Positions 189 to 13,638 of a stretch of DNA of 64,000 nucleotides are shown piece by piece. The notes beneath the pieces are model-generated. The model searched no databases, had not been told where the DNA came from, and saw only the letters and a list, made by a program, of their open reading frames with translations. Numbering within the stretch: the first letter of the stretch is position 1; each line of letters starts with the position of its first letter. The DNA comes from Clostridiales bacterium (lineage in GTDB: Bacteria; Bacillota; Clostridia; Saccharofermentanales; Saccharofermentanaceae). The translations under genes were made by a program, and so were the position numbers. The stretch is from assembly GCA_017513085.1 (NCBI GenBank), contig JAFWDK010000027.1:160564-224563 (forward strand), written 5' to 3'.

Positions 189-1397
189 TCATTTCTTCCC
201 GAGAAGCGGTGCAGAGACGCGTGGGAGGATGCCTTGCATGTGAGCGAGGATGACGCCGTAATTAGTGATCGGCACGCCGGCGCTCTGGCAGATGCGGATG
301 CGGTGCATCATCTCTCTGGGATTGAGCATGCAGCCGCCGCAGTGGATCACGAGATCAAACTCGGAAAGATTGTCCGGGAAAGAATCGCCGGAAGACCACT
401 CAAAGTGGAAGTTTTTACCGGTTGTCCTGGTAATCATCTTCGGAAGCTTCACGGTTCCGATATCGTTGCACTGACGATGGTGTGTGCACCCCTCCGAAAT
501 CAGGATATGAGCACCATCTTCAAGAGAATCCAGTGTTTTGGCAGAAAGGATCGCTTCACCAAGATCTCCTTTGTATCTAGCAAACAGCATGGAGAATGAG
601 GTCAACGGAATCTCCTGCGGGACAATCTCATTAACTTCCTTGAAGGCCTGACTGTCTGTAACGACCAACTTCGGCGGTTTGCCAAGAGACTCCAGAACCT
701 TAGAGAGCTCAGGGACCTGCGTAACTACCGCGATGGCGCTGCTGTCCAGGACATCTCGAAGTGTCTGCTGCTGCGGAAGGATCAGGCGTCCTTTTGGCGC
801 GGATTCATCGATCGGCGTAACCAGAACTACAATATCGCCTTCGGATATCAGATCCGCGATGATCTTTCGGCCGTTTGTCGGATCGACCACCAGATGGCCG
901 ACCATTTCTTTCAGATCGTTAATGTTGATCTTGTCGGAAGCGGACACCCAGATACTATCTTGCGCCACCTCTTTCGTGCGGCCTTTTCCTATACGCTGCT
1001 GGACAAGGTCGAGTTTGTTATATACCGTGATGTACGGAAGATTTCTGTCTTTGAACATTTTCATCAGCATGCGGTCGCCATCAGTAAGACCGATCGTGCC
1101 GTCTACCACGTGGATCGCGATGTCGACTTTCGCCATGACCTCTTTGCACTTGGTCACACGAAGGGCACCCAATTCACCCTCATCGTCGATACCGGGCGTG
1201 TCCACGATCATGACCGGGCCCAGAGGGAGGAGTTCCATTGCCTTATAGACCGGATCTGTCGTTGTCCCTTTTACATCTGAAACGATCGCGATCTCCTGGT
1301 TGGTAAAAGCATTTACAACACTGGATTTTCCGGCATTACGCATACCAAAGAATCCGATATAGATACGCTCTCCGCGTGGTGTTGATGAAAGGCTCAT
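189..1397 (-). CDS. hydF: [FeFe]-hydrogenase H-cluster maturation GTPase
   Basis: GMRNAGKSS P-loop, GTTTD, DTPG, NKLD, and Fe-S ligand motifs EGCTHH and HCGGC. Confidence 0.96.
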   Translation of the reverse strand: MSLSSTPRGERIYIGFFGMRNAGKSSVVNAFTNQEIAIVSDVKGTTTDPVYKAMELLPLGPVMIVDTPGIDDEGELGALRVTKCKEVMAKVDIAIHVVDGTIGLTDGDRMLMKMFKDRNLPYITVYNKLDLVQQRIGKGRTKEVAQDSIWVSASDKININDLKEMVGHLVVDPTNGRKIIADLISEGDIVVLVTPIDESAPKGRLILPQQQTLRDVLDSSAIAVVTQVPELSKVLESLGKPPKLVVTDSQAFKEVNEIVPQEIPLTSFSMLFARYKGDLGEAILSAKTLDSLEDGAHILISEGCTHHRQCNDIGTVKLPKMITRTTGKNFHFEWSSGDSFPDNLSEFDLVIHCGGCMLNPREMMHRIRICQSAGVPITNYGVILAHMQGILPRVSAPLLGKK

Positions 1398-1483
1398 AAG
1401 CGTATTTCCCCTCTTCTCAAGATATGTTTATTGTACTAGAAGAGTAACATCTTTCTCAAGTAGTGAAAGTCTCCTCTTATTGC

Positions 1484-2770
1484 TTAAGAAGCGGAATACT
1501 GAAGTTTATACAATTCTAACAAAGCGTACAAATACATATCTTCTTGTGTTTCAATTAAGCATTCTGAATCACCCAAACTGATGTCCGTGATATCCTCTTC
1601 ATAGGGTTTCGATAAATCAATAACTCTATCGTACAGATATTTGCATGTAGTAATTATCATCATTGAAACCCAAAATGTAACATCATACTCCATCGTATCT
1701 ACATGAGAACAATAAGCCCATACCTCATCAAGCGGTGGATTGATTTCTCCCTTAGGAGTCTCCATTTCTAAATAATCACGAATAGTGGTATCGAGACTGC
1801 ATTTTTCATCATTTGAAACGATTATTGAAACCTGCTTATTCAGTCTAGTAAAAACCAGCGGATCAAATTCAACTCGGTAGTTCGAATATTCATTAAATCC
1901 CCTGTGAAAATACTTTGCTCCATCATAGAGGAAGCTGACAGAACATAACTGTTTTTCATGTGTTTTTTCGTCAAACATCTTTATACTTTTGTTGATCCAA
2001 TCAGAATCTGAGAAAGACATGACAGAGAATTTCTTTAACTCAAGTATTTTCTTCCTTATAGTTTTATTGCATTTACAAAAAGCCGTATACATTGGTCGAA
2101 CAAAGTTATGCAACGGATCTATAAATGAAGCTATCTGGCACAATGGAAGAAGCCCTATTTCTTTCTCATATGTAATACAAAATTCCTGCGCTTCTCTATA
2201 TATAGAGTCTTTATTCTTCGATGGCACGAGTCCTGCATTTTTACGTGATTTGCCCATTCGTTTTTCTATTTGAGAAAAGAATTTCTCATTAAGCTCATGA
2301 ACATTCTTTTCAGCGTTAGAATTATCATTAGATTTTAAAACATACAAAAATACTCCAGCCAAAAATACATCCTCAGCTACACTTTTTTCTCGAATATCTT
2401 TCTTAGTGATTGGGGTTATAACATCAACTTTACATTCGTCATTTGTTTCATCATCGTTCTCTATTAGCTTATATAAAGCCTCCATCAAAACTGGCATTTT
2501 GTTCTGATCAATTAACGGGATTACTTCTTCTGTAAAATGAGATATCAACTTAGGATAATTATTCGAAGTATAACTTAAACCATCTTCAACAACATAGTCC
2601 GGGGGATTCTTCCTACCAGCAACTAAATTAGATATAAGGCTATCGTCAGTCTCATCAAATTGATTGGAGTGAAAATGCATAATCGTTCCAACCAGACGCT
2701 TTTGTGTACAAGATTTTGATTTGTAACGAACCAGAATTGTCAAATATGTTCCCAAACACAATTTGCTCAT
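1484..2770 (-). CDS. Hypothetical protein, divergent from the DUF4417 operon, possibly a regulator
   Basis: 428-aa AT-rich ORF with RBS; no catalytic motif recognised. Confidence 0.75.
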   Translation of the reverse strand: MSKLCLGTYLTILVRYKSKSCTQKRLVGTIMHFHSNQFDETDDSLISNLVAGRKNPPDYVVEDGLSYTSNNYPKLISHFTEEVIPLIDQNKMPVLMEALYKLIENDDETNDECKVDVITPITKKDIREKSVAEDVFLAGVFLYVLKSNDNSNAEKNVHELNEKFFSQIEKRMGKSRKNAGLVPSKNKDSIYREAQEFCITYEKEIGLLPLCQIASFIDPLHNFVRPMYTAFCKCNKTIRKKILELKKFSVMSFSDSDWINKSIKMFDEKTHEKQLCSVSFLYDGAKYFHRGFNEYSNYRVEFDPLVFTRLNKQVSIIVSNDEKCSLDTTIRDYLEMETPKGEINPPLDEVWAYCSHVDTMEYDVTFWVSMMIITTCKYLYDRVIDLSKPYEEDITDISLGDSECLIETQEDMYLYALLELYKLQYSAS

Positions 2771-2928
2771 ATCCTTTCCCCCTGTCTACCCTAGATTATA
2801 CGGCTTTTCACGAAACAAGTCTCGGGAAAGTTTCAGTCATGTTTTTCAATTCAGACACAATTTAAAATGTTGGCAATAACACCAGGATCCTTGTGTTTAT
2901 ATTTCTTTTTTCAGGAGGATAAACACAC

Positions 2929-3651
2929 ATGAAAAGTGTTAATAATCGGCCGCCTCGAAAAGGCTGCAAAGACATTTGGAATGCATTTATGGTTAAAGAT
3001 GCGTCATTCGATGTTGGTACAGATATGCCAATTTGTATTTCAACTGACATTATACCTGTATCGCTCATTTCGTTCGAGGATGCAAAAACCATTTATAAAA
3101 AGGAGATGAAACTTAAGCATAATAATTTCTTTATCAATACCTTCATACATTTCTACATCGATGATCAGAAATTTGATGGGAAACGCACAAGCATTTGGAC
3201 GTATCCAAATCAGGCACTTAAGATCATACGCCATTTTGCCGGCATAATAACACCTGATTTTTCAACATATGCAGATTTCCCCAAACCCGTCAAATACTTT
3301 AACACTTATCGCATGCGAGCATTTGGATGCTGGATGAACGTGTTAGAAATCCCTGCTATTAACAATGTTCGTTGGGGAACATATGAAACCTGGGAATATT
3401 GCTTTGCTGGTATTCCAAAAGGAAGCACTGTTGCAATCGGTTCAGTGGCAAGCGGTATCAGAAAACTAAACAATCGCCCGCTTTTTGAAGAAGGGCTAAA
3501 GAAAATGGTATCCGTCATATCTCCAAAACGCATAATCGTCTATGGCTCTTCAAATTACCCCTGTCTTCAGAATCTTCGAAAAACCGGCATAGAGATAGTT
3601 TCCATTCCGAGCAAGACAAGTCTGGCGTATAAGGAGGTGTCTAATGAGTAA
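2929..3651 (+). CDS. DUF4417 family protein
   Basis: Motifs HFYIDDQKF, ITPDFSTYAD, NTYR, NVRWG...FAG; AGGAGG RBS. Confidence 0.85.
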   Translation: MKSVNNRPPRKGCKDIWNAFMVKDASFDVGTDMPICISTDIIPVSLISFEDAKTIYKKEMKLKHNNFFINTFIHFYIDDQKFDGKRTSIWTYPNQALKIIRHFAGIITPDFSTYADFPKPVKYFNTYRMRAFGCWMNVLEIPAINNVRWGTYETWEYCFAGIPKGSTVAIGSVASGIRKLNNRPLFEEGLKKMVSVISPKRIIVYGSSNYPCLQNLRKTGIEIVSIPSKTSLAYKEVSNE

Positions 3652-4219
3652 ATCTAACAGTGGGCTTTTCTCTGGTACGAACGGAGACAAACTGACACGT
3701 TATACTCGCACTGTAGGAAATCTCAGGCAAAAGATTCCGGAAAGTGATATTATAGCAAGTAGAGTAGCGGGCCTTGATCTTCATGAGCATCCTTTGAAAT
3801 ATAAGCAGTTATCTTCCAAAAAGATGAAACAGTTAAGCAAGAAAGTTGCTACACGCACGTTGACACAGCACGAGTATAAATCATATGATTCGAATATGCG
3901 ATTATTGAAAAGACGTGAAAAAGGTGTGGATTCCTTTTGGAAGCAAGAGACACAACGAATCATTGCAGGCGCTCCCACCACAAGAAACTGGAGTCCGGAG
4001 CAAAGAAATGACATAATTCATAATCGTCGGCCGAAAGAGAATGGAAAAACTCTGCAAGGTCACCATACCTATAGTGTCGCTAAGTATCCGCACTTGGCAA
4101 ATCGTGGAGAAGTAGTATTTCCTGCAACTTTTAATGAACACTTATATGGATGGCACGGAGGTAATATCAAGAAGTCATTGCCGGGTCAACCAATAAACCC
4201 TAGTAAACTTCGTAGATAG
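3644..4219 (+). CDS. Tox-GHH (HNH/EndoVII-fold) nuclease toxin with a short Gly/Ser-rich N-terminal leader
   Basis: FWKQE...TRNWSPEQ...LQGHHTYSVAKYPHLA...EH...HGGN matches the GHH-signature toxin pattern; 8-nt overlap with DUF4417; AAGGAGG RBS. Confidence 0.8.
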   Translation: MSKSNSGLFSGTNGDKLTRYTRTVGNLRQKIPESDIIASRVAGLDLHEHPLKYKQLSSKKMKQLSKKVATRTLTQHEYKSYDSNMRLLKRREKGVDSFWKQETQRIIAGAPTTRNWSPEQRNDIIHNRRPKENGKTLQGHHTYSVAKYPHLANRGEVVFPATFNEHLYGWHGGNIKKSLPGQPINPSKLRR

Positions 4220-4232
4220 TAGGAGGAAAAAA

Positions 4233-4592
4233 ATGCAAAACATAGATGTTATGGATAACATAGGAATTAAGATTACTCATTTTACTTCCCTCTCAAAAAC
4301 CATCGGGATTTTAAGAAAGTATCGAAATGACTCTATGAGTACTATCAAATCTGATATCGAGTCAAGTGATTTTGTCTTTGCATGTGATTATACCGATGAT
4401 GAAGGACTTGTAAAACTCATCAATTGTTATGATGAGCTTGTAGCATGTGGTTGTAATGTAGTCATATATGATCTTGGTCGTATTGGCTCTAGAGAATTAC
4501 TTTGCAATCTGCATGAGTCTCACGAAATAACACATATGGAAACATTAGCAGAGATAGATGCTGAGTTAAATGATGCTGAAAATGACGAATGA
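4233..4592 (+). CDS. Putative cognate immunity protein
   Basis: Small acidic ORF 13 nt after the toxin stop, with AGGAGG RBS; assignment is positional. Confidence 0.6.
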   Translation: MQNIDVMDNIGIKITHFTSLSKTIGILRKYRNDSMSTIKSDIESSDFVFACDYTDDEGLVKLINCYDELVACGCNVVIYDLGRIGSRELLCNLHESHEITHMETLAEIDAELNDAENDE

Positions 4593-4618
4593 CAGCATAT
4601 CGGGAAGATTACCTTGGC

Positions 4619-4660
4619 AAAGGGTGTATAGGCGTTATAGATACCTATACACCCTTTCTT
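4619..4660 (+). terminator. Hairpin closing the toxin island
   Basis: AAAGGGTGTATAGG / CCTATACACCCTTT perfect 14-bp inverted repeat. Confidence 0.6.
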
Positions 4661-4704
4661 GAAAATGTGGTACATTAAATGTAGTTTTCGAGGGTTCCCA
4701 GGGG

Positions 4705-5850
4705 GTGGGTATGAAGATACGTTTTGACGGGTTGACGAAGCGTTTTCCCAATCGTAATAAGAAGATCAAGTCCGAGGTCGTGGCAGTAGATAATTTCTGC
4801 TTTGAGATCCCGGATGGTAAGCTGGTGGGCCTTCTCGGTCCTTCCGGTTGTGGTAAGAGTACAGCGCTGAACCTGATCTGCGGCCTGGAGACACCGACGG
4901 AGGGAAAGATCTTTTTCGACGATGACGATGTCACCGATCTTCCTGCAGAGAACCGTGGTGTCGGTATGGTCTTTCAGAGTTACGCCCTCTACCCTCACCT
5001 GACCGTGAAGAAAAATATCATGTTCCCTCTTCAGAACTTGAAGGGCGAACAGAAAATGACAAAAGAGCAGATGGAGGCCAAGGCTCTGGAAGCAGCGAAG
5101 ATCGTACAGATTGAAGAACTGATGGACAGAAAGCCAAGTGAAATGAGCGGAGGTCAGCAGCAGCGTGTAGCTATAGCCCGTGCTCTGGTCAAGATGCCTC
5201 GCGTGTTGCTTCTGGACGAACCTCTTTCCAACCTGGACGCACGTCTCCGTATCCAGACAAGAGAAGAGATCAAGCGCATCCAAAACACCACAAAGATCAC
5301 GACCGTATTTGTTACGCATGACCAGGAAGAAGCTATGAGCATTTCCGACCTGATCGTGGTCATGAAGGACGGCGCCGTGCACCAGATCGGCAAGCCCCAG
5401 GAAGTATATGACGCGCCGGTCAATCTGTTCGTGGCAAAATTCCTTGGCACGCCGCCGATCAACGTCTTTACCGGGAAAATCAAGGACGGAAAGCTTATTC
5501 TTGGAGAGGATACCATCCTGGGGAAAGACTATGTGAAGGATACAAAGGATCAGGAAGTCTTCATCGGCATCCGTCCGGAAGGCTTCATTCTCCGCGAGAA
5601 TAAAGAGAAAAAAGATAATCTGGACGGAAAAAACGGCGTATTCCATGCCGATCTTCTGGCTATCGAAGTCATGGGCAGAGATACCAGCGTTGTCTTCTCT
5701 CACTGTTCTTCCGAAATTGAAGGAACAAGACTTCGTGCTATCGTATCTTCTGACAACCAGATCGATCCGGAAAGCAAGAAAGTCGCCTTTGATGTGAATC
5801 CGAAGAAAGTCTTTGTTTTCTCAAAAGAAACGCAGGAGCGTCTGCTATGA
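4705..5850 (+). CDS. Carbohydrate-type ABC transporter ATP-binding protein (MalK/UgpC family)
   Basis: [28 protein letters not shown]. Confidence 0.95.
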   Translation: MGMKIRFDGLTKRFPNRNKKIKSEVVAVDNFCFEIPDGKLVGLLGPSGCGKSTALNLICGLETPTEGKIFFDDDDVTDLPAENRGVGMVFQSYALYPHLTVKKNIMFPLQNLKGEQKMTKEQMEAKALEAAKIVQIEELMDRKPSEMSGGQQQRVAIARALVKMPRVLLLDEPLSNLDARLRIQTREEIKRIQNTTKITTVFVTHDQEEAMSISDLIVVMKDGAVHQIGKPQEVYDAPVNLFVAKFLGTPPINVFTGKIKDGKLILGEDTILGKDYVKDTKDQEVFIGIRPEGFILRENKEKKDNLDGKNGVFHADLLAIEVMGRDTSVVFSHCSSEIEGTRLRAIVSSDNQIDPESKKVAFDVNPKKVFVFSKETQERLL

Positions 5851-10490: not shown

Positions 10491-10802
10491 TCAGCCGTCT
10501 TCTCTGTATTCAAAGTCGAAGGTGTCGATGCGCTCTGACGGGTCGGAAAGATCCGATCCGAAGTGCTGGAACTGGAAAAGGAATTTTTGTCTTTTCGCAC
10601 GTGGAACGACCATGGCAACTTGTGCTGTCAGAAGAGCGGAAAAAAGAATATCCAATCCGATGACAAGAAGTCCTGCGTAAAGCAACGGGTGGAAAAAGAT
10701 ACATCCGATAAACAGAAGGACCGCCATCACCAACAAATATCGGAAATACCCGAAAAACGTAAGCAAGAAACAAGCACAAGCACTTCTCATTCCTTTTTTC
10801 AT
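10491..10802 (-). CDS. Small membrane protein
   Basis: GGAGG RBS; two hydrophobic segments. Confidence 0.6.
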   Translation of the reverse strand: MKKGMRSACACFLLTFFGYFRYLLVMAVLLFIGCIFFHPLLYAGLLVIGLDILFSALLTAQVAMVVPRAKRQKFLFQFQHFGSDLSDPSERIDTFDFEYREDG

Positions 10803-11145
10803 GACACCCTCCTACTCCTCTTTTCCCATCGTTTTTAGACCAGGATTCGAAAATATCGGCTTTGATTTTTTAATTTTTTGGTCAGGAACTCAGGTAAAGC
10901 AAATGATGATCTATTAGATCAATATATTGTATGCCTCGTAATTGAAAACCCCTATATATTCATCTTAACACTCTTTTTTGAAAATAACGCAAGTGTTTTT
11001 CACACTTTGCAAAAAATTTTTGCATTTTTCTTTTTTTGCAGATAAGTCGAGTGGTTTTTTGTCGCGGGAAATGACTTCTCCGGCAAGGAAAAAGCGTAAA
11101 AAAGAGGGCCGCTAAGCCCTCTTCAGATTGTTTCCGATCAGCCGG

Positions 11146-13638
11146 TCAACCGCCCGGAATCATCGGTCCGCCATGATCCGTCGGTGGCGGTGGCGGAGCC
11201 GGCGTCGGTGTCGCCTTATGGAACTGACACTCTGTCTGCGGATTCAAGTAGGAATCCGCGATAAAGTAATCTTCCACCACAGAACCTGCCTCCTGACAGA
11301 ACTGTGTGGCCTTTTGGCCGGACGACGAACATACCGAAGCGCGTACAATATTATCCGGCACCTCAAATTTCGCGCCGGGAAGATCCTTATGGATCCTCTG
11401 CATGACTTCATTCCAGATACGCTGCGCATTGTTTCTGTCGCCTTTCGGGATCTCCGTGGTACGAAGGCGGTTAACGTATCCATACCAGACGGCCGCCGAG
11501 TAGTAAGGCGTGAATCCGCAGAACCACTTATCGACGTTATCGTCTGTTGTACCGGTCTTACCGGCTACAGCGATCGATTCGCCATCTGCATTCTCGATCG
11601 GCAATACTTTATTCTTCGCCGTACCATAAGTAATTACATCCTGAAGCATGCTGGTCATCAGGAACGAAGTATCCTCGCGATAGACACGATGAGAGGTTAC
11701 CTCGTGCGTCAGGATCTCGTTGTTATCACTGTCTAATACCTTTGTGTACGCATAAGGTTCGGTGTAGATTCCTCCGGTTGCGAATGTGTTATAAGCGGCA
11801 GCCATCTCCAACGGTGACATACCCAGGTTAAAACCACCGACCGCCGTTGACGGATACTGCTCCGTCAATCGGTTGATGCCTACTTCATTGAGAAACCAGA
11901 GCGCCATTTCCGCGCCAACATCAAACCAGACCATAACTGCGATCGTATTTCTTGATGACGCCACAGCCTGCCGGATCGTGATCGGGCCTTTGTATGCGTT
12001 ATCCGAGTTTTTCGGCCATACTGCATTAGGATTAGACGGATCAAGATGTGATTCTTTATCGTCATAGACCATGGACGGCGTGATCAGACGCAGTTCCAAT
12101 GCCGGACCGTATGCGATCAACGGCTTGATCGAAGAACCCGGCTGACGATGCGCATCTACTGCAAGGTTGGTACCCAGGTTAATGGTCTTTTCGCCGTAAC
12201 CTCCCTGCATACCGGCAATAGCTCCGGTATCCACGTTTATGACCACCATGCCGGCCTGCGGTTTTTCCGGATAATCCTCAAGCGCTTCAGGATCCGTCTG
12301 GAATAGATCTCTATTCTTAAAGGCATCATCCATAACCGCCTGAACATCGGATTCCATTGTGGTATAGATATGATAACCCCGGTTATATACTGTTGTAGCC
12401 GCCAGAGAACGGCTGATCTTTCTCTTCTGCTGAAGATCCGAGATAACCTCGGAAACAGCATACTCTACAAAATACGAGTTGATCTTGGTAGCCGAAGATG
12501 TATTTGCCGTTCTGAATACCAGTTCCGTATTCAGAGCATTGTCATACTCTTCCTGCGTAATGAAGCCAAGTTCCAGCATCTTACTTAATACGATACGCAT
12601 ACGGCGCATCGCATTTCTTCTACCGGATTCACGAAGCGGGTTATAGTAAGACGGGCTCTTCGGAAGTCCTGCCAGAAAAGCACACTCCGCCAGGGAAAGT
12701 TCTTTTGCATTCTTACCGAAATAGTTCTGCGCGCCGGCTTCTACACCTACATAGTTATTTCCCATCGGAGCAAGGTTGATGTAAAGCTGCATGATCTCAT
12801 CTTTGCTGGCCTGCTGCTCGAGCGTCATAGCGGAAAACCACTCCTGAACTTTTCTCTGTGTGGAGCGCTGGTCCTGACCGGAGATAAGCTTGACCGTCTG
12901 CTGGGTAATCGTCGAACCGCCATGGGAGGCAGTACCGCCATTAGCCAATGCGGAAAGAACGGCGCTTCCGATTCTCTGGACGTCGATACCGGAGTGTTCC
13001 AGAAAACGTTCATCTTCGATTGCCATGATGGCTTCGTCAATATATGTATCTTTAACTTCCGTAAATGCCACGTAAATGCGGTCCACGTTCTCACTACCGG
13101 TCAGCTTGGCTAACACCGTGCCGTTGGAGTCGTAGACAAAAGACGTCTCTACCGAGTCTGTCATGGTGATATCCGTCACGGAAAGCGGTGTAGTGGTGGA
13201 AATATAGCCGATGAGCATACCTCCGCCAAAACCTCCGGCCATAAAGCATACACAAAGCAGGATAACCAGTGCGGTCTTCAGGATGTCCATGACTCCGTGG
13301 AAAACCTCCATATACCAGTGACGCTCGTGTGCAGCACGTGTCGGTTTACCACTCAGGCGGGAACGGAGTTCGTCTGCAAGCGCACTGTTTTCCGGCGCAA
13401 TCGGTCTTGTCGAGCGCTGTTGTGGATCTCTGACTTCGTTATCCTTCTCATACGCCTGAGACCTGGAATAGCTTCCTTGCGCCGTCATGCCGGATACAGT
13501 CTGACCGTGCGGCTTCGTGGACTGGTCAATGGTAGCATCCGTCACCACACGCTTCTTCTTCGGCTTCGCGGCAGAACCGTTTTCTTTATTATTCTTACCG
13601 GAAGGCCGAAAAGAGCCTCCCTGGTTTTGATTTGACAT
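11146..13638 (-). CDS. Class A penicillin-binding protein (PBP1A family)
   Basis: Transglycosylase motifs EDERF and GGSTITQQ; transpeptidase motifs SSIK, SRN and KTG. Confidence 0.96.
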   Translation of the reverse strand: MSNQNQGGSFRPSGKNNKENGSAAKPKKKRVVTDATIDQSTKPHGQTVSGMTAQGSYSRSQAYEKDNEVRDPQQRSTRPIAPENSALADELRSRLSGKPTRAAHERHWYMEVFHGVMDILKTALVILLCVCFMAGGFGGGMLIGYISTTTPLSVTDITMTDSVETSFVYDSNGTVLAKLTGSENVDRIYVAFTEVKDTYIDEAIMAIEDERFLEHSGIDVQRIGSAVLSALANGGTASHGGSTITQQTVKLISGQDQRSTQRKVQEWFSAMTLEQQASKDEIMQLYINLAPMGNNYVGVEAGAQNYFGKNAKELSLAECAFLAGLPKSPSYYNPLRESGRRNAMRRMRIVLSKMLELGFITQEEYDNALNTELVFRTANTSSATKINSYFVEYAVSEVISDLQQKRKISRSLAATTVYNRGYHIYTTMESDVQAVMDDAFKNRDLFQTDPEALEDYPEKPQAGMVVINVDTGAIAGMQGGYGEKTINLGTNLAVDAHRQPGSSIKPLIAYGPALELRLITPSMVYDDKESHLDPSNPNAVWPKNSDNAYKGPITIRQAVASSRNTIAVMVWFDVGAEMALWFLNEVGINRLTEQYPSTAVGGFNLGMSPLEMAAAYNTFATGGIYTEPYAYTKVLDSDNNEILTHEVTSHRVYREDTSFLMTSMLQDVITYGTAKNKVLPIENADGESIAVAGKTGTTDDNVDKWFCGFTPYYSAAVWYGYVNRLRTTEIPKGDRNNAQRIWNEVMQRIHKDLPGAKFEVPDNIVRASVCSSSGQKATQFCQEAGSVVEDYFIADSYLNPQTECQFHKATPTPAPPPPPTDHGGPMIPGG

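Follow-up and report, generated by a model that had tools for sequence, protein, structure and literature searches.

Polymorphic toxin systems join a constant N-terminal part to exchangeable toxin domains, such as Tox-GHH, AHH, EndoU, Ntox50, and YwqJ deaminase, with a cognate immunity gene directly downstream and extra cassettes in some loci, as set out in the part of PMC3482391 available to us. The delivery routes tabulated there for Tox-GHH are the type II, type VI, and type VII (LXG) secretion systems and TcdB/TcaC, and a route resembling a tag with a DUF4417 partner does not appear in that table. A different arrangement has been described in the type IV cyclic oligonucleotide-based antiphage signaling system (CBASS), where Cap10, a member of the tRNA-guanine transglycosylase (TGT) family without the zinc site, binds the NDG-modified, Gly/Ser-rich N terminus of CdnD; the two proteins form a stable 2:2 complex, and transfer to an unknown target was proposed (10.1101/2025.04.06.647259, accessible portion). 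In the literature on DUF4417, PF14386, Tox-GHH, and ABC-3C (subscription papers and bioRxiv supplements apart), we found no description of a tag/toxin pairing, and the only comment on DUF4417 function that we came across in print concerns ParB-DUF4417 fusions, which are enriched in prophages (10.1101/2025.10.10.680097, accessible portion). Here, we analyze a 64,000-nucleotide (nt) stretch of a Clostridiales bacterium genome (contig JAFWDK010000027.1; hereafter, the window), in which a small island encodes a DUF4417 protein, a Tox-GHH toxin that begins with a short conserved tag, and a presumed immunity protein. We give about even chances to the reading that this island is a DUF4417-dependent, tag-directed polymorphic toxin/immunity module, most likely an inducible effector of defense islands. 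What would be new is a polymorphic toxin/immunity system with an undescribed constant module, and there is a real chance that its chemistry is categorically new.

The island lies between hydF (189–1397) and an ABC ATPase gene (4705–5850) and coincides with a drop in guanine-plus-cytosine (GC) content, which is 0.33–0.42 across about 1250–4750 versus about 0.50 on either side. In a genome of the same genus, hydF and the ABC gene are about 0.8 kb apart and the island is missing between them; its four genes had no tblastn match in the loci of the seven relatives examined. Neither an integrase nor direct repeats at its flanks mark the island. Three open reading frames (ORFs) on the plus strand, at 2929–3651, 3644–4219, and 4233–4592, encode proteins of 240, 191, and 119 amino acids (aa), respectively. 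A preliminary description of this DNA, made from the letters alone, had singled out these three genes as a DUF4417/Tox-GHH/small-gene trio in a low-GC island, and the ORFs, Pfam, and GC content all agree with it. As a trio, the description was incomplete, because the island has a fourth gene (1484–2770, minus strand), divergent from the DUF4417 gene.

The 191-aa product (3644–4219, plus strand) is a predicted nuclease toxin of the HNH/EndoVII type. Tox-GHH (PF15636) matches residues 87–156 (nt 3902–4111) with an E value of 4.5e-11 and 43 bits versus a cutoff of 25; it is the sole Pfam domain of the protein, and residues 1–86 had no match. The signature motifs of this family are WxxE, W, G[HQ]H, NIxF, and [DE]H, according to the available part of PMC3482391. 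The translation contains WKQE (for WxxE), W, GHH, and EH; NIxF is not present literally, and VVFP stands in its place. Neither Pfam nor the translation revealed anything at the N terminus for secretion or trafficking, be it a signal peptide or an LXG/WXG, RHS, or MuF domain, which bears out the preliminary view of the protein as a nuclease with a GHH signature and no signal peptide or delivery domain. The GHH module (residues 40–191) also forms the C terminus of two longer proteins of 339 and 515 aa (56–63% identity, 95–96% coverage), the N-terminal parts of which are unrelated; such recurrence at the ends of longer proteins is typical of polymorphic-toxin cassettes. A possible LXG-like assignment of the 515-aa protein was dropped, its N terminus having no Pfam match.

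The start of the toxin gene is tied to the DUF4417 gene. Its ATG (3644) lies 8 nt inside the DUF4417 reading frame, which ends with TAA at 3649–3651, and its ribosome-binding site AAGGAGGTG (3631–3639, plus strand) falls within the last DUF4417 codons; translation of the toxin is thus predicted to be coupled to that of DUF4417. The first 14 codons (3644–3685, plus strand) encode the N-terminal tag MSKSNSGLFSGTNG, for which the family consensus is MSKxxSGxFxGTxG; as a free peptide, the tag of the window toxin is SKSNSGLFSGTNG. It is not hydrophobic. The gene at 4233–4592 (plus strand) encodes a 119-aa acidic protein that had no family match in any library scanned (Pfam, PADLOC, NCBIfam, and PHROGs); the last three libraries likewise contributed nothing further for the toxin. 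We presume this acidic protein to be the cognate immunity protein of the GHH toxin, judging by its co-variation with toxin type described below.

To place the locus among its relatives, we scanned a DUF4417 alignment against one genome per species, which gave 189 relatives, and took the best 80 with their flanks. Together with three loci in the window's own genome, they make up a set of 83. Lachnospiraceae of rumen and gut, together with other Clostridia, supply most of the 80 loci; a few are labeled Coriobacteriia, Selenomonadaceae, and others. For detection, the tag was defined as M[S/C/A]K..S..[F/Y/L], or the variant that the window's own genome carries on contig 11, no more than a few bases from the DUF4417 stop codon. 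A tag is present at the DUF4417 stop in all 83 loci of this clade. In 79 of them, an ORF with the tag-pattern start is found there; in one (L035), the same tag follows a CTG codon with a strong ribosome-binding site; and in the remaining three, the sequence stops 12–16 nt past the DUF4417 stop, yet MAKPSSGH or MSKGS is visible. The start overlaps the 3' end of the DUF4417 gene in 74 of the 79 tagged genes, by 8 nt in 46 and by 4 nt in 18. Tag positions outside the detection pattern are conserved as well (n = 78): G7 in 54 sequences, G11 in 63, T12 in 70, and G14 in 71.

Outside these sites, the tag pattern is rare. In the 1.39 million six-frame residues of the 80 loci, it occurs six more times. 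Two of these matches represent additional tagged toxin genes, one for an AHH toxin accompanied by a DUF4274 gene (L065) and the other for a second toxin of its locus (L073). L070 has a piece of the tagged gene adjoining DUF4417, cut off by the contig end, L074 has a tagged remnant of 61 aa, and the last two matches are short ORFs that do not encode toxins. A six-frame search of the window's own genome (6.1 million residues) matched the pattern only at the three sites adjacent to DUF4417 genes. The pairing of DUF4417 with the tag is far beyond chance.

That genome has three DUF4417 genes and two Tox-GHH genes. A paralogous cassette on contig 14 (6214–9401 of locus L006) consists of a gene for a 466-aa upstream protein, DUF4417, a GHH toxin that starts with MSKPCSGHFSGTTG, and a gene for a 119-aa protein. 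On contig 11 (8285–10901 of locus L007), XRE and ImmA/IrrE-like genes precede a DUF4417 gene whose product is 26% identical to that of the window; after it come an overlapping gene for a 168-aa EndoU_bacteria protein with the tag MGTSKSGRYLNTKGSG and a gene for a 111-aa acidic protein.

Whereas the tag is constant, the cargo behind it is not. Pfam, run on 73 complete downstream proteins, assigned 23 to Tox-GHH, 11 to a PBECR1-like type (below cutoff), seven to YwqJ deaminase (two at or above cutoff), and one each to EndoU, AHH, Ntox50, and Prok-JAB; three gave weak matches to other families, and 25 had no family. With the first 20 residues removed, 76 tagged proteins fell into 14 unrelated BLAST clusters. 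The products of the next gene formed 20 clusters that track the toxin cluster. GHH-type toxins (T1) are followed by I1, the family of the window's 119-aa protein, in 24 of 25 loci, and the other pairings are T2 with I2 (14 of 17), T3 with I3 or I7 (8 of 8), T4 with I4 (5 of 7), T5 with I5 (5 of 6), T6 with I6 (4 of 4), and T7 with I8 (2 of 2). Some partners belong to known families: DUF4274 follows AHH, and another partner is a pentapeptide-repeat protein. In L084, the gene after a T5 toxin of unknown family carries a Tpt1/KptA domain, a hint that toxins of this type may act on RNA ends or through NAD-linked chemistry. Genes for Tpt1/KptA (RNA 2'-phosphotransferase) recur near cassettes, being found in seven loci, including L014, L058, and L084.

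To follow cargo exchange, we built a quick maximum-likelihood tree of 78 DUF4417 proteins, with toxin type labeled in 71 rows (13 states). Toxin type changes 21 times on this tree, compared with a minimum of 12 and with 40–44 changes in five shuffles; therefore, cargo partly follows phylogeny and has been repeatedly replaced. The two hallmarks of polymorphic toxins are both present: variable toxin domains on a common N-terminal part (14 clusters behind one 14-residue tag) and a co-varying gene directly downstream of the toxin. At the level of sequence comparison, these data establish a constant chassis of DUF4417 and tag that carries interchangeable toxin/immunity cargo. Unlike in the polymorphic toxin systems described so far, however, the constant part of the toxin is only 14 residues long and contains no trafficking domain, and the constant partner is a separate, translationally coupled protein. 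Polymorphic toxins have so far been understood through their N-terminal delivery domains. Here, a 14-residue tag and a separate enzyme-like protein stand in for such a domain, and so a whole route of toxin handling lies outside that account.

Similar pairs are found beyond this clade. In a phylum sample of 401 genomes, 10 hold DUF4417, and we examined the genes downstream of eight DUF4417 genes, seven over the Pfam cutoff and a divergent Cys-rich variant (L095). An MGGRG-type start lies near five of the eight, in the next gene in four cases and in the third gene downstream in one; one of the others has MGGGYSNKFTGTRGS, a hybrid with an SxxFxGTxG core, another has an MGTTYKGN start, and no tag was seen downstream of L095. 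Tag type varies with DUF4417 clade. All tag types have a small residue (S, C, A, or G) at position 2. Methionine aminopeptidase usually removes Met1 before such a residue, and a free N terminus should therefore be exposed.

Phages carry such pairs, too. Among the 50,697 phage records, 491 hold a DUF4417 relative, chiefly those of mycobacteriophages and Streptococcus phages, with 27–32% identity and none above 32%. In Mycobacterium phage SheaKeira, gene 2 ("metalloprotease") overlaps the DUF4417 gene 1 and starts with MGGRGSGGG. In Streptococcus phage A25, gp23, the gene after the DUF4417 gene gp22, spans 3552–3962 if read from an in-frame ATG that is missing from the annotation, and then starts with MGGRGASSG; the public annotation sets the start nine codons later (3579) and therefore hides the tag. 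Both pairs lie directly before terminase genes. These phage proteins share with the window the Pfam family and an overlapping next gene with a Gly-rich tag, but differ in their position beside terminase, in cargo that includes a metalloprotease and basic proteins, and in the tag itself (MGGRG versus MSKxxSGxFxGTxG). Phage DUF4417 homologs are often fused to ParB-type DNA-binding domains. The clade with the MSK-type tag had no relative in IMG/VR viral contigs, and a plasmid scan for it returned only seven distant matches. The family as a whole is large, with 3043 clusters (50% identity) at E ≤ 0.001 and 1931 at E ≤ 1e-10, yet sparse in the phylum sample. The preliminary description had proposed collecting the genes downstream of DUF4417 homologs and checking them for a leader that is conserved, toxins that vary, and immunity genes that match them, all three of which were found; its statement that small proteins with a Gly-rich N terminus often lie downstream of DUF4417 genes also holds in other clades and in phages, where the tags are of the MGGRG type.

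The constant partner, the 240-aa DUF4417 protein (2929–3651, plus strand), matches PF14386 at model positions 8–169 of 183 with an E value of 2.5e-40 and 138.4 bits versus a cutoff of 28.9; among PHROGs, it matches phrog_8680 and the C-terminal half of phrog_940, the latter labeled "nuclease". An AlphaFold (AF2) model built from 20 sequences, with a predicted local distance difference test (pLDDT) score of 84.3 and a predicted template modeling (pTM) score of 0.83, is a barrel of alternating strands and helices. We compared it with 48,161 representative chains using VIA-align, and the best matches were QTRT2 (Z 9.4), archaeosine TGT (Z 9.1), DpdA (Z 8.4), and bacterial TGT (Z 8.1), with generic TIM barrels at Z 7.6 or lower; the four top chains, all of the TGT family, align over 181–186 residues with a root mean square deviation of 3.5–3.8. 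When the 1000 best Foldseek chains were re-compared, the top 39 were all TGT-family (Z 7.8–9.3). DUF4417 stops at the point where the barrel of TGTs does (the alignment reaches TGT residue ~292), and therefore the zinc subdomain appears to be absent. A comparison with the ESM Atlas gave no match above 0.83. DUF4417 is thus predicted to be a reduced TIM barrel that is nearest, at the fold level only, to tRNA/DNA-guanine transglycosylases.

Conservation in DUF4417 is concentrated in the motifs HFYIDDxKFDG, DFST..DFP, RWG, YGS, and PSKTS. The invariant or nearly invariant residues are H74, D78, D79, K81, and D83; D110, S112, and D116; R148, W149, and G150; Y205, G206, and S207; and S228, T230, and S231. 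In the model, all of them directly follow predicted strands, at the C-terminal strand ends. The C-terminal strand ends are the usual ligand face of barrels.

Cap10 with CdnD is the closest described parallel for such a pair. Both cases combine a protein of transglycosylase fold without a zinc subdomain (as predicted for DUF4417) with the Gly/Ser-rich N terminus of a partner in a defense context, and the CdnD peptide GGSGGSFGSGF, in the accessible part of 10.1101/2025.04.06.647259, loosely resembles the cassette's SxSGxFxGTxG. The differences are substantial: the cassette has no QueC-like Cap9, no CD-NTase, and no sequence similarity to the Cap10 pair, its partner is a toxin with an immunity protein, Cap10 is a 37-kDa protein compared with about 240 aa for DUF4417, and any modification of the cassette's tag is hypothetical. 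The island is not a type IV CBASS locus, as it contains neither a QueC-like Cap9 nor a CD-NTase with an M(G/S)G(G/S)GG tail.

Upstream of DUF4417, the divergent fourth gene (1484–2770, minus strand) encodes a 428-aa, all-helical, two-domain protein (AF2 model, pLDDT 86). It matches only positions 1–166 of the 490-position PADLOC HamA1 model (E 6.5e-19); Pfam found no DUF1837 in it and no HamB helicase gene is adjacent, so the locus is not Hachiman. Its C-terminal domain had no match, Foldseek returned nothing from the PDB at E ≤ 0.001, and the best Z of a wide VIA search was an uninformative 4.1. We considered its family's N-terminal domain as an XRE-like helix-turn-helix (HTH) and dropped the idea, since hhalign, run against the XRE neighbors, aligned the exact HTH region with a probability of only 1.2%. 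All-against-all clustering of ORFs in the flanks placed this family in 43 of the 83 loci, directly upstream and divergent in 42 of the 43. Its members have about 165 N-terminal residues in common, and 22 of 39 match HamA1 positions 1–166. The C-terminal halves of these 39 proteins vary: eight match ThsA_Macro, six ABC-3C CTD11, one CTD6, and one CTD10, and the rest, the window's protein among them, had no match. The N-terminal domain, which the window's protein thus shares with Thoeris-like and ABC-3C/Lamassu-like effector subunits, matched no described effector domain in the libraries searched and is, on the comparative data, an independent effector-type domain.

A scan of 150 of the 169 upstream ORFs showed what lies further out. 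A ThsB_TIR gene lies beyond the Macro-bearing upstream gene in eight loci, and genes for an ABC-3C middle component and/or a DUF2326/AAA_23 ATPase lie beyond the CTD-bearing versions in five. Related loci therefore resemble type II Thoeris and ABC-3C/Lamassu in that the upstream gene bears ThsA_Macro or ABC-3C CTD11/6/10 beside partner genes, whereas the window's 428-aa protein has no Macro or CTD match and no TIR or ABC gene beside it; with neither a ThsB TIR nor a Macro ThsA in the window, the locus itself is not type II Thoeris. Among loci without the 428-aa family, the divergent upstream gene belongs in 12 to one XRE HTH family with a conserved C-terminal extension, and further loci have a co-directional XRE and/or ImmA/IrrE-like gene instead. 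Other neighbors of the cassette include type I and MmeI restriction-modification, Fic, Schlafen/AlbA_2, an AbiEii-like ATPase, MazF, and the Tpt1/KptA genes mentioned above. No secretion-system, transporter, or lysis gene is conserved beside the cassette in the 83 loci. The preliminary description had offered an anti-phage role as an alternative, and this alternative gains indirect support because Thoeris-like, ABC-3C-like, and XRE/ImmA genes adjoin the cassette.

The comparison shows the order and coupling of the genes, a conserved tag, swapped cargo with co-varying immunity genes, a resemblance in fold, and the neighborhood; beyond this, we infer contact between DUF4417 and the tag, its chemistry, the toxicity and neutralization of the cargo, and a role in defense, as follows. 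The first 14 residues of the toxin would be a dedicated handle for the co-translated DUF4417. Removal of Met1 would expose the small second residue of the tag, as in the Cap10–CdnD pair, and DUF4417 would then hold or chemically modify this N-terminal handle and so control when or where the toxin acts. The product of the downstream gene would neutralize the toxin in the producer cell, and the toxin domain and immunity gene together would be exchangeable cargo on the constant chassis. The module as a whole would serve as an inducible effector in anti-phage or anti-mobile-element defense islands, governed by the divergent upstream gene: the 428-aa protein here, and Thoeris-like, ABC-3C-like, XRE, or XRE plus ImmA elsewhere. 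Recognition of the tag by DUF4417 is the most economical reading, because a constant, coupled chassis carries interchangeable cargo, and, mindful of the differences from Cap10, we go no further than to rate it fairly probable that the tag is bound by DUF4417 and probably also modified or tethered by it. The role as a defense-island effector we rate a little short of even, ahead of interbacterial competition.

Several observations weigh against this reading. The N-terminal domain of the upstream protein was found in 17 of the 401 sampled genomes, and 16 of the 17 have no DUF4417; we therefore rejected it as a dedicated DUF4417 partner, and its adjacency to the cassette may reflect island clustering. 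Co-induction of a toxin with its own immunity gene does not, by itself, explain killing. Fourteen short contigs from four RNA-labeled runs map to the island (e.g., at 2795–3025 and 3837–4033), but as evidence of transcription they are weak and not proof, DNA carry-over being possible. The chemistry of Cap9 and Cap10 is not simply transferable, since the cassette has no QueC-like gene; the window's own genome has a normal tgt gene and, elsewhere, only one weak PF06508 (QueC-family) match of 26 bits. We limit the TGT likeness to the fold because support at the sequence level is absent: hhalign gave a probability of 0.3% for DUF4417 against 17 TGTs, and a profile search of PDB sequences with DUF4417 found no TGT, nor anything else. 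A Foldseek search of the PDB with the DUF4417 model returned no match at E ≤ 0.001, only weak TIM-barrel rows, and the Z gap between TGTs and generic TIM barrels is small (8.1–9.4 versus ≤ 7.6). In our reading of the alignment, no Asp is seen in the DUF4417 consensus where the TGT nucleophile strand would fall. Finally, the cargo consists of classic interbacterial toxin families and the GHH module ends longer proteins, and therefore a role in competition fits these data equally.

In the competition scenario, the tag and DUF4417 would form a new export, loading, or maturation route, the downstream gene would confer self-immunity, and the defense-type neighbors would be mere island company. GHH, AHH, Ntox50, EndoU, and YwqJ deaminase with co-varying immunity genes are the hallmark of polymorphic toxins (PMC3482391, available part), and the shared GHH module of the 339- and 515-aa proteins, the extra tagged cassettes in some loci, and the mostly DUF4417-free occurrence of the upstream domain all suit this scenario. 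Against it speaks the lack of a conserved secretion, transporter, or lysis gene beside the cassette; moreover, the tag is not hydrophobic, the toxin has no signal peptide, and the conserved neighbors are regulators and defense-type genes. We therefore judge competition unlikely, though the strongest of the rivals. The compact island, its absence from a genome of the same genus, the second, paralogous set of the four genes elsewhere in the window's own genome, and the adjoining genes for toxin and neutralizer could instead be those of a toxin-antitoxin-like addiction module that stabilizes a small mobile island, with DUF4417 as an accessory regulator or toxin chaperone. This would leave unexplained why all 83 loci keep a 240-aa barrel protein and a 14-residue tag although the toxins change, and the window island contains no integrase, transposase, or plasmid genes; we find addiction improbable.

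Two further alternatives take the tag to be incidental. DUF4417 could act on nucleic acid like TGT or DpdA, for example to mark self DNA or RNA, with the tagged proteins merely co-transcribed and their common N terminus reflecting a common translation-initiation sequence. Base-exchanging enzymes on tRNA or DNA are indeed the nearest fold, and phage homologs have ParB-type fusions (10.1101/2025.10.10.680097, accessible portion). However, the tag is kept at the protein level over 14 codons, across synonymous differences, it changes in step with DUF4417 clade, and a single constant modifier would hardly protect against DNases, RNases, and deaminases alike, which leaves this explanation slightly less credible even than addiction. 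That an orphan toxin/immunity pair happens to follow DUF4417 by coincidence has next to no credibility and is refuted by the survey, given the pairing in 83 of 83 loci and the restriction of the tag in the window's own genome to its three DUF4417 genes. A more specific form of tag handling is also conceivable, although we consider it rather unlikely: as a protein-directed relative of base-exchange enzymes, DUF4417 might couple tagged cargo covalently, through the N terminus exposed on the tag, to a nucleobase or directly to nucleic acid, as a general "tag-and-tether" device. If so, phages, with their ParB fusions and terminase-proximal pairs, would load cargo onto or alongside packaged DNA, defense islands would prime exchangeable toxins against invading nucleic acid or steer them to it, and the device would represent a new class of protein–nucleic acid conjugation and a new deployment logic for polymorphic toxins.

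Returning to the tag-directed module, the clade with the MSK-type tag offers the cleanest entry to DUF4417 function, with a 14-residue peptide as a substrate candidate, a toxicity and rescue readout, and at least 14 natural cargo types. If its link to Thoeris- and Lamassu-like genes is functional, defense systems can outsource killing to plug-in toxin/immunity cassettes. The domain at the N terminus of the upstream protein also occurs at the head of compact operons in other genomes of the phylum (L098–L102, L106, and L110), made up of a small HTH gene, the domain gene, a short ORF of ~85 aa, and an apparent P-loop ORF. Their makeup suggests ABC-3C/Lamassu-type systems that carry an all-helical effector domain not described before.

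Two noncoding features of the island remain to be described. The intergenic region between the divergent genes (2771–2928, no strand assigned) is a candidate operator/promoter of the DUF4417 operon, based on consensus matches: it contains a weak promoter-like site (2876–2903) overlapped by a palindrome (2878–2897), as well as repeated ACACAA/TTGTGT motifs. This assignment is suggestive only, and promoter-like sites are not enriched relative to shuffled sequences (9 found, 13.2 expected). At the right-hand margin of the low-GC island, past the gene for the 119-aa protein and ahead of that for the ABC ATPase, there is a perfect 14-bp inverted repeat with an 11-nt loop (4619–4657, no strand assigned). 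It is possibly a terminator or the right-hand boundary of the island; a terminator scan did not call it, and no T run is present there. Outside the four-gene island, the window has a second dip in GC content at 10500–11250 (0.40–0.42 versus about 0.50).

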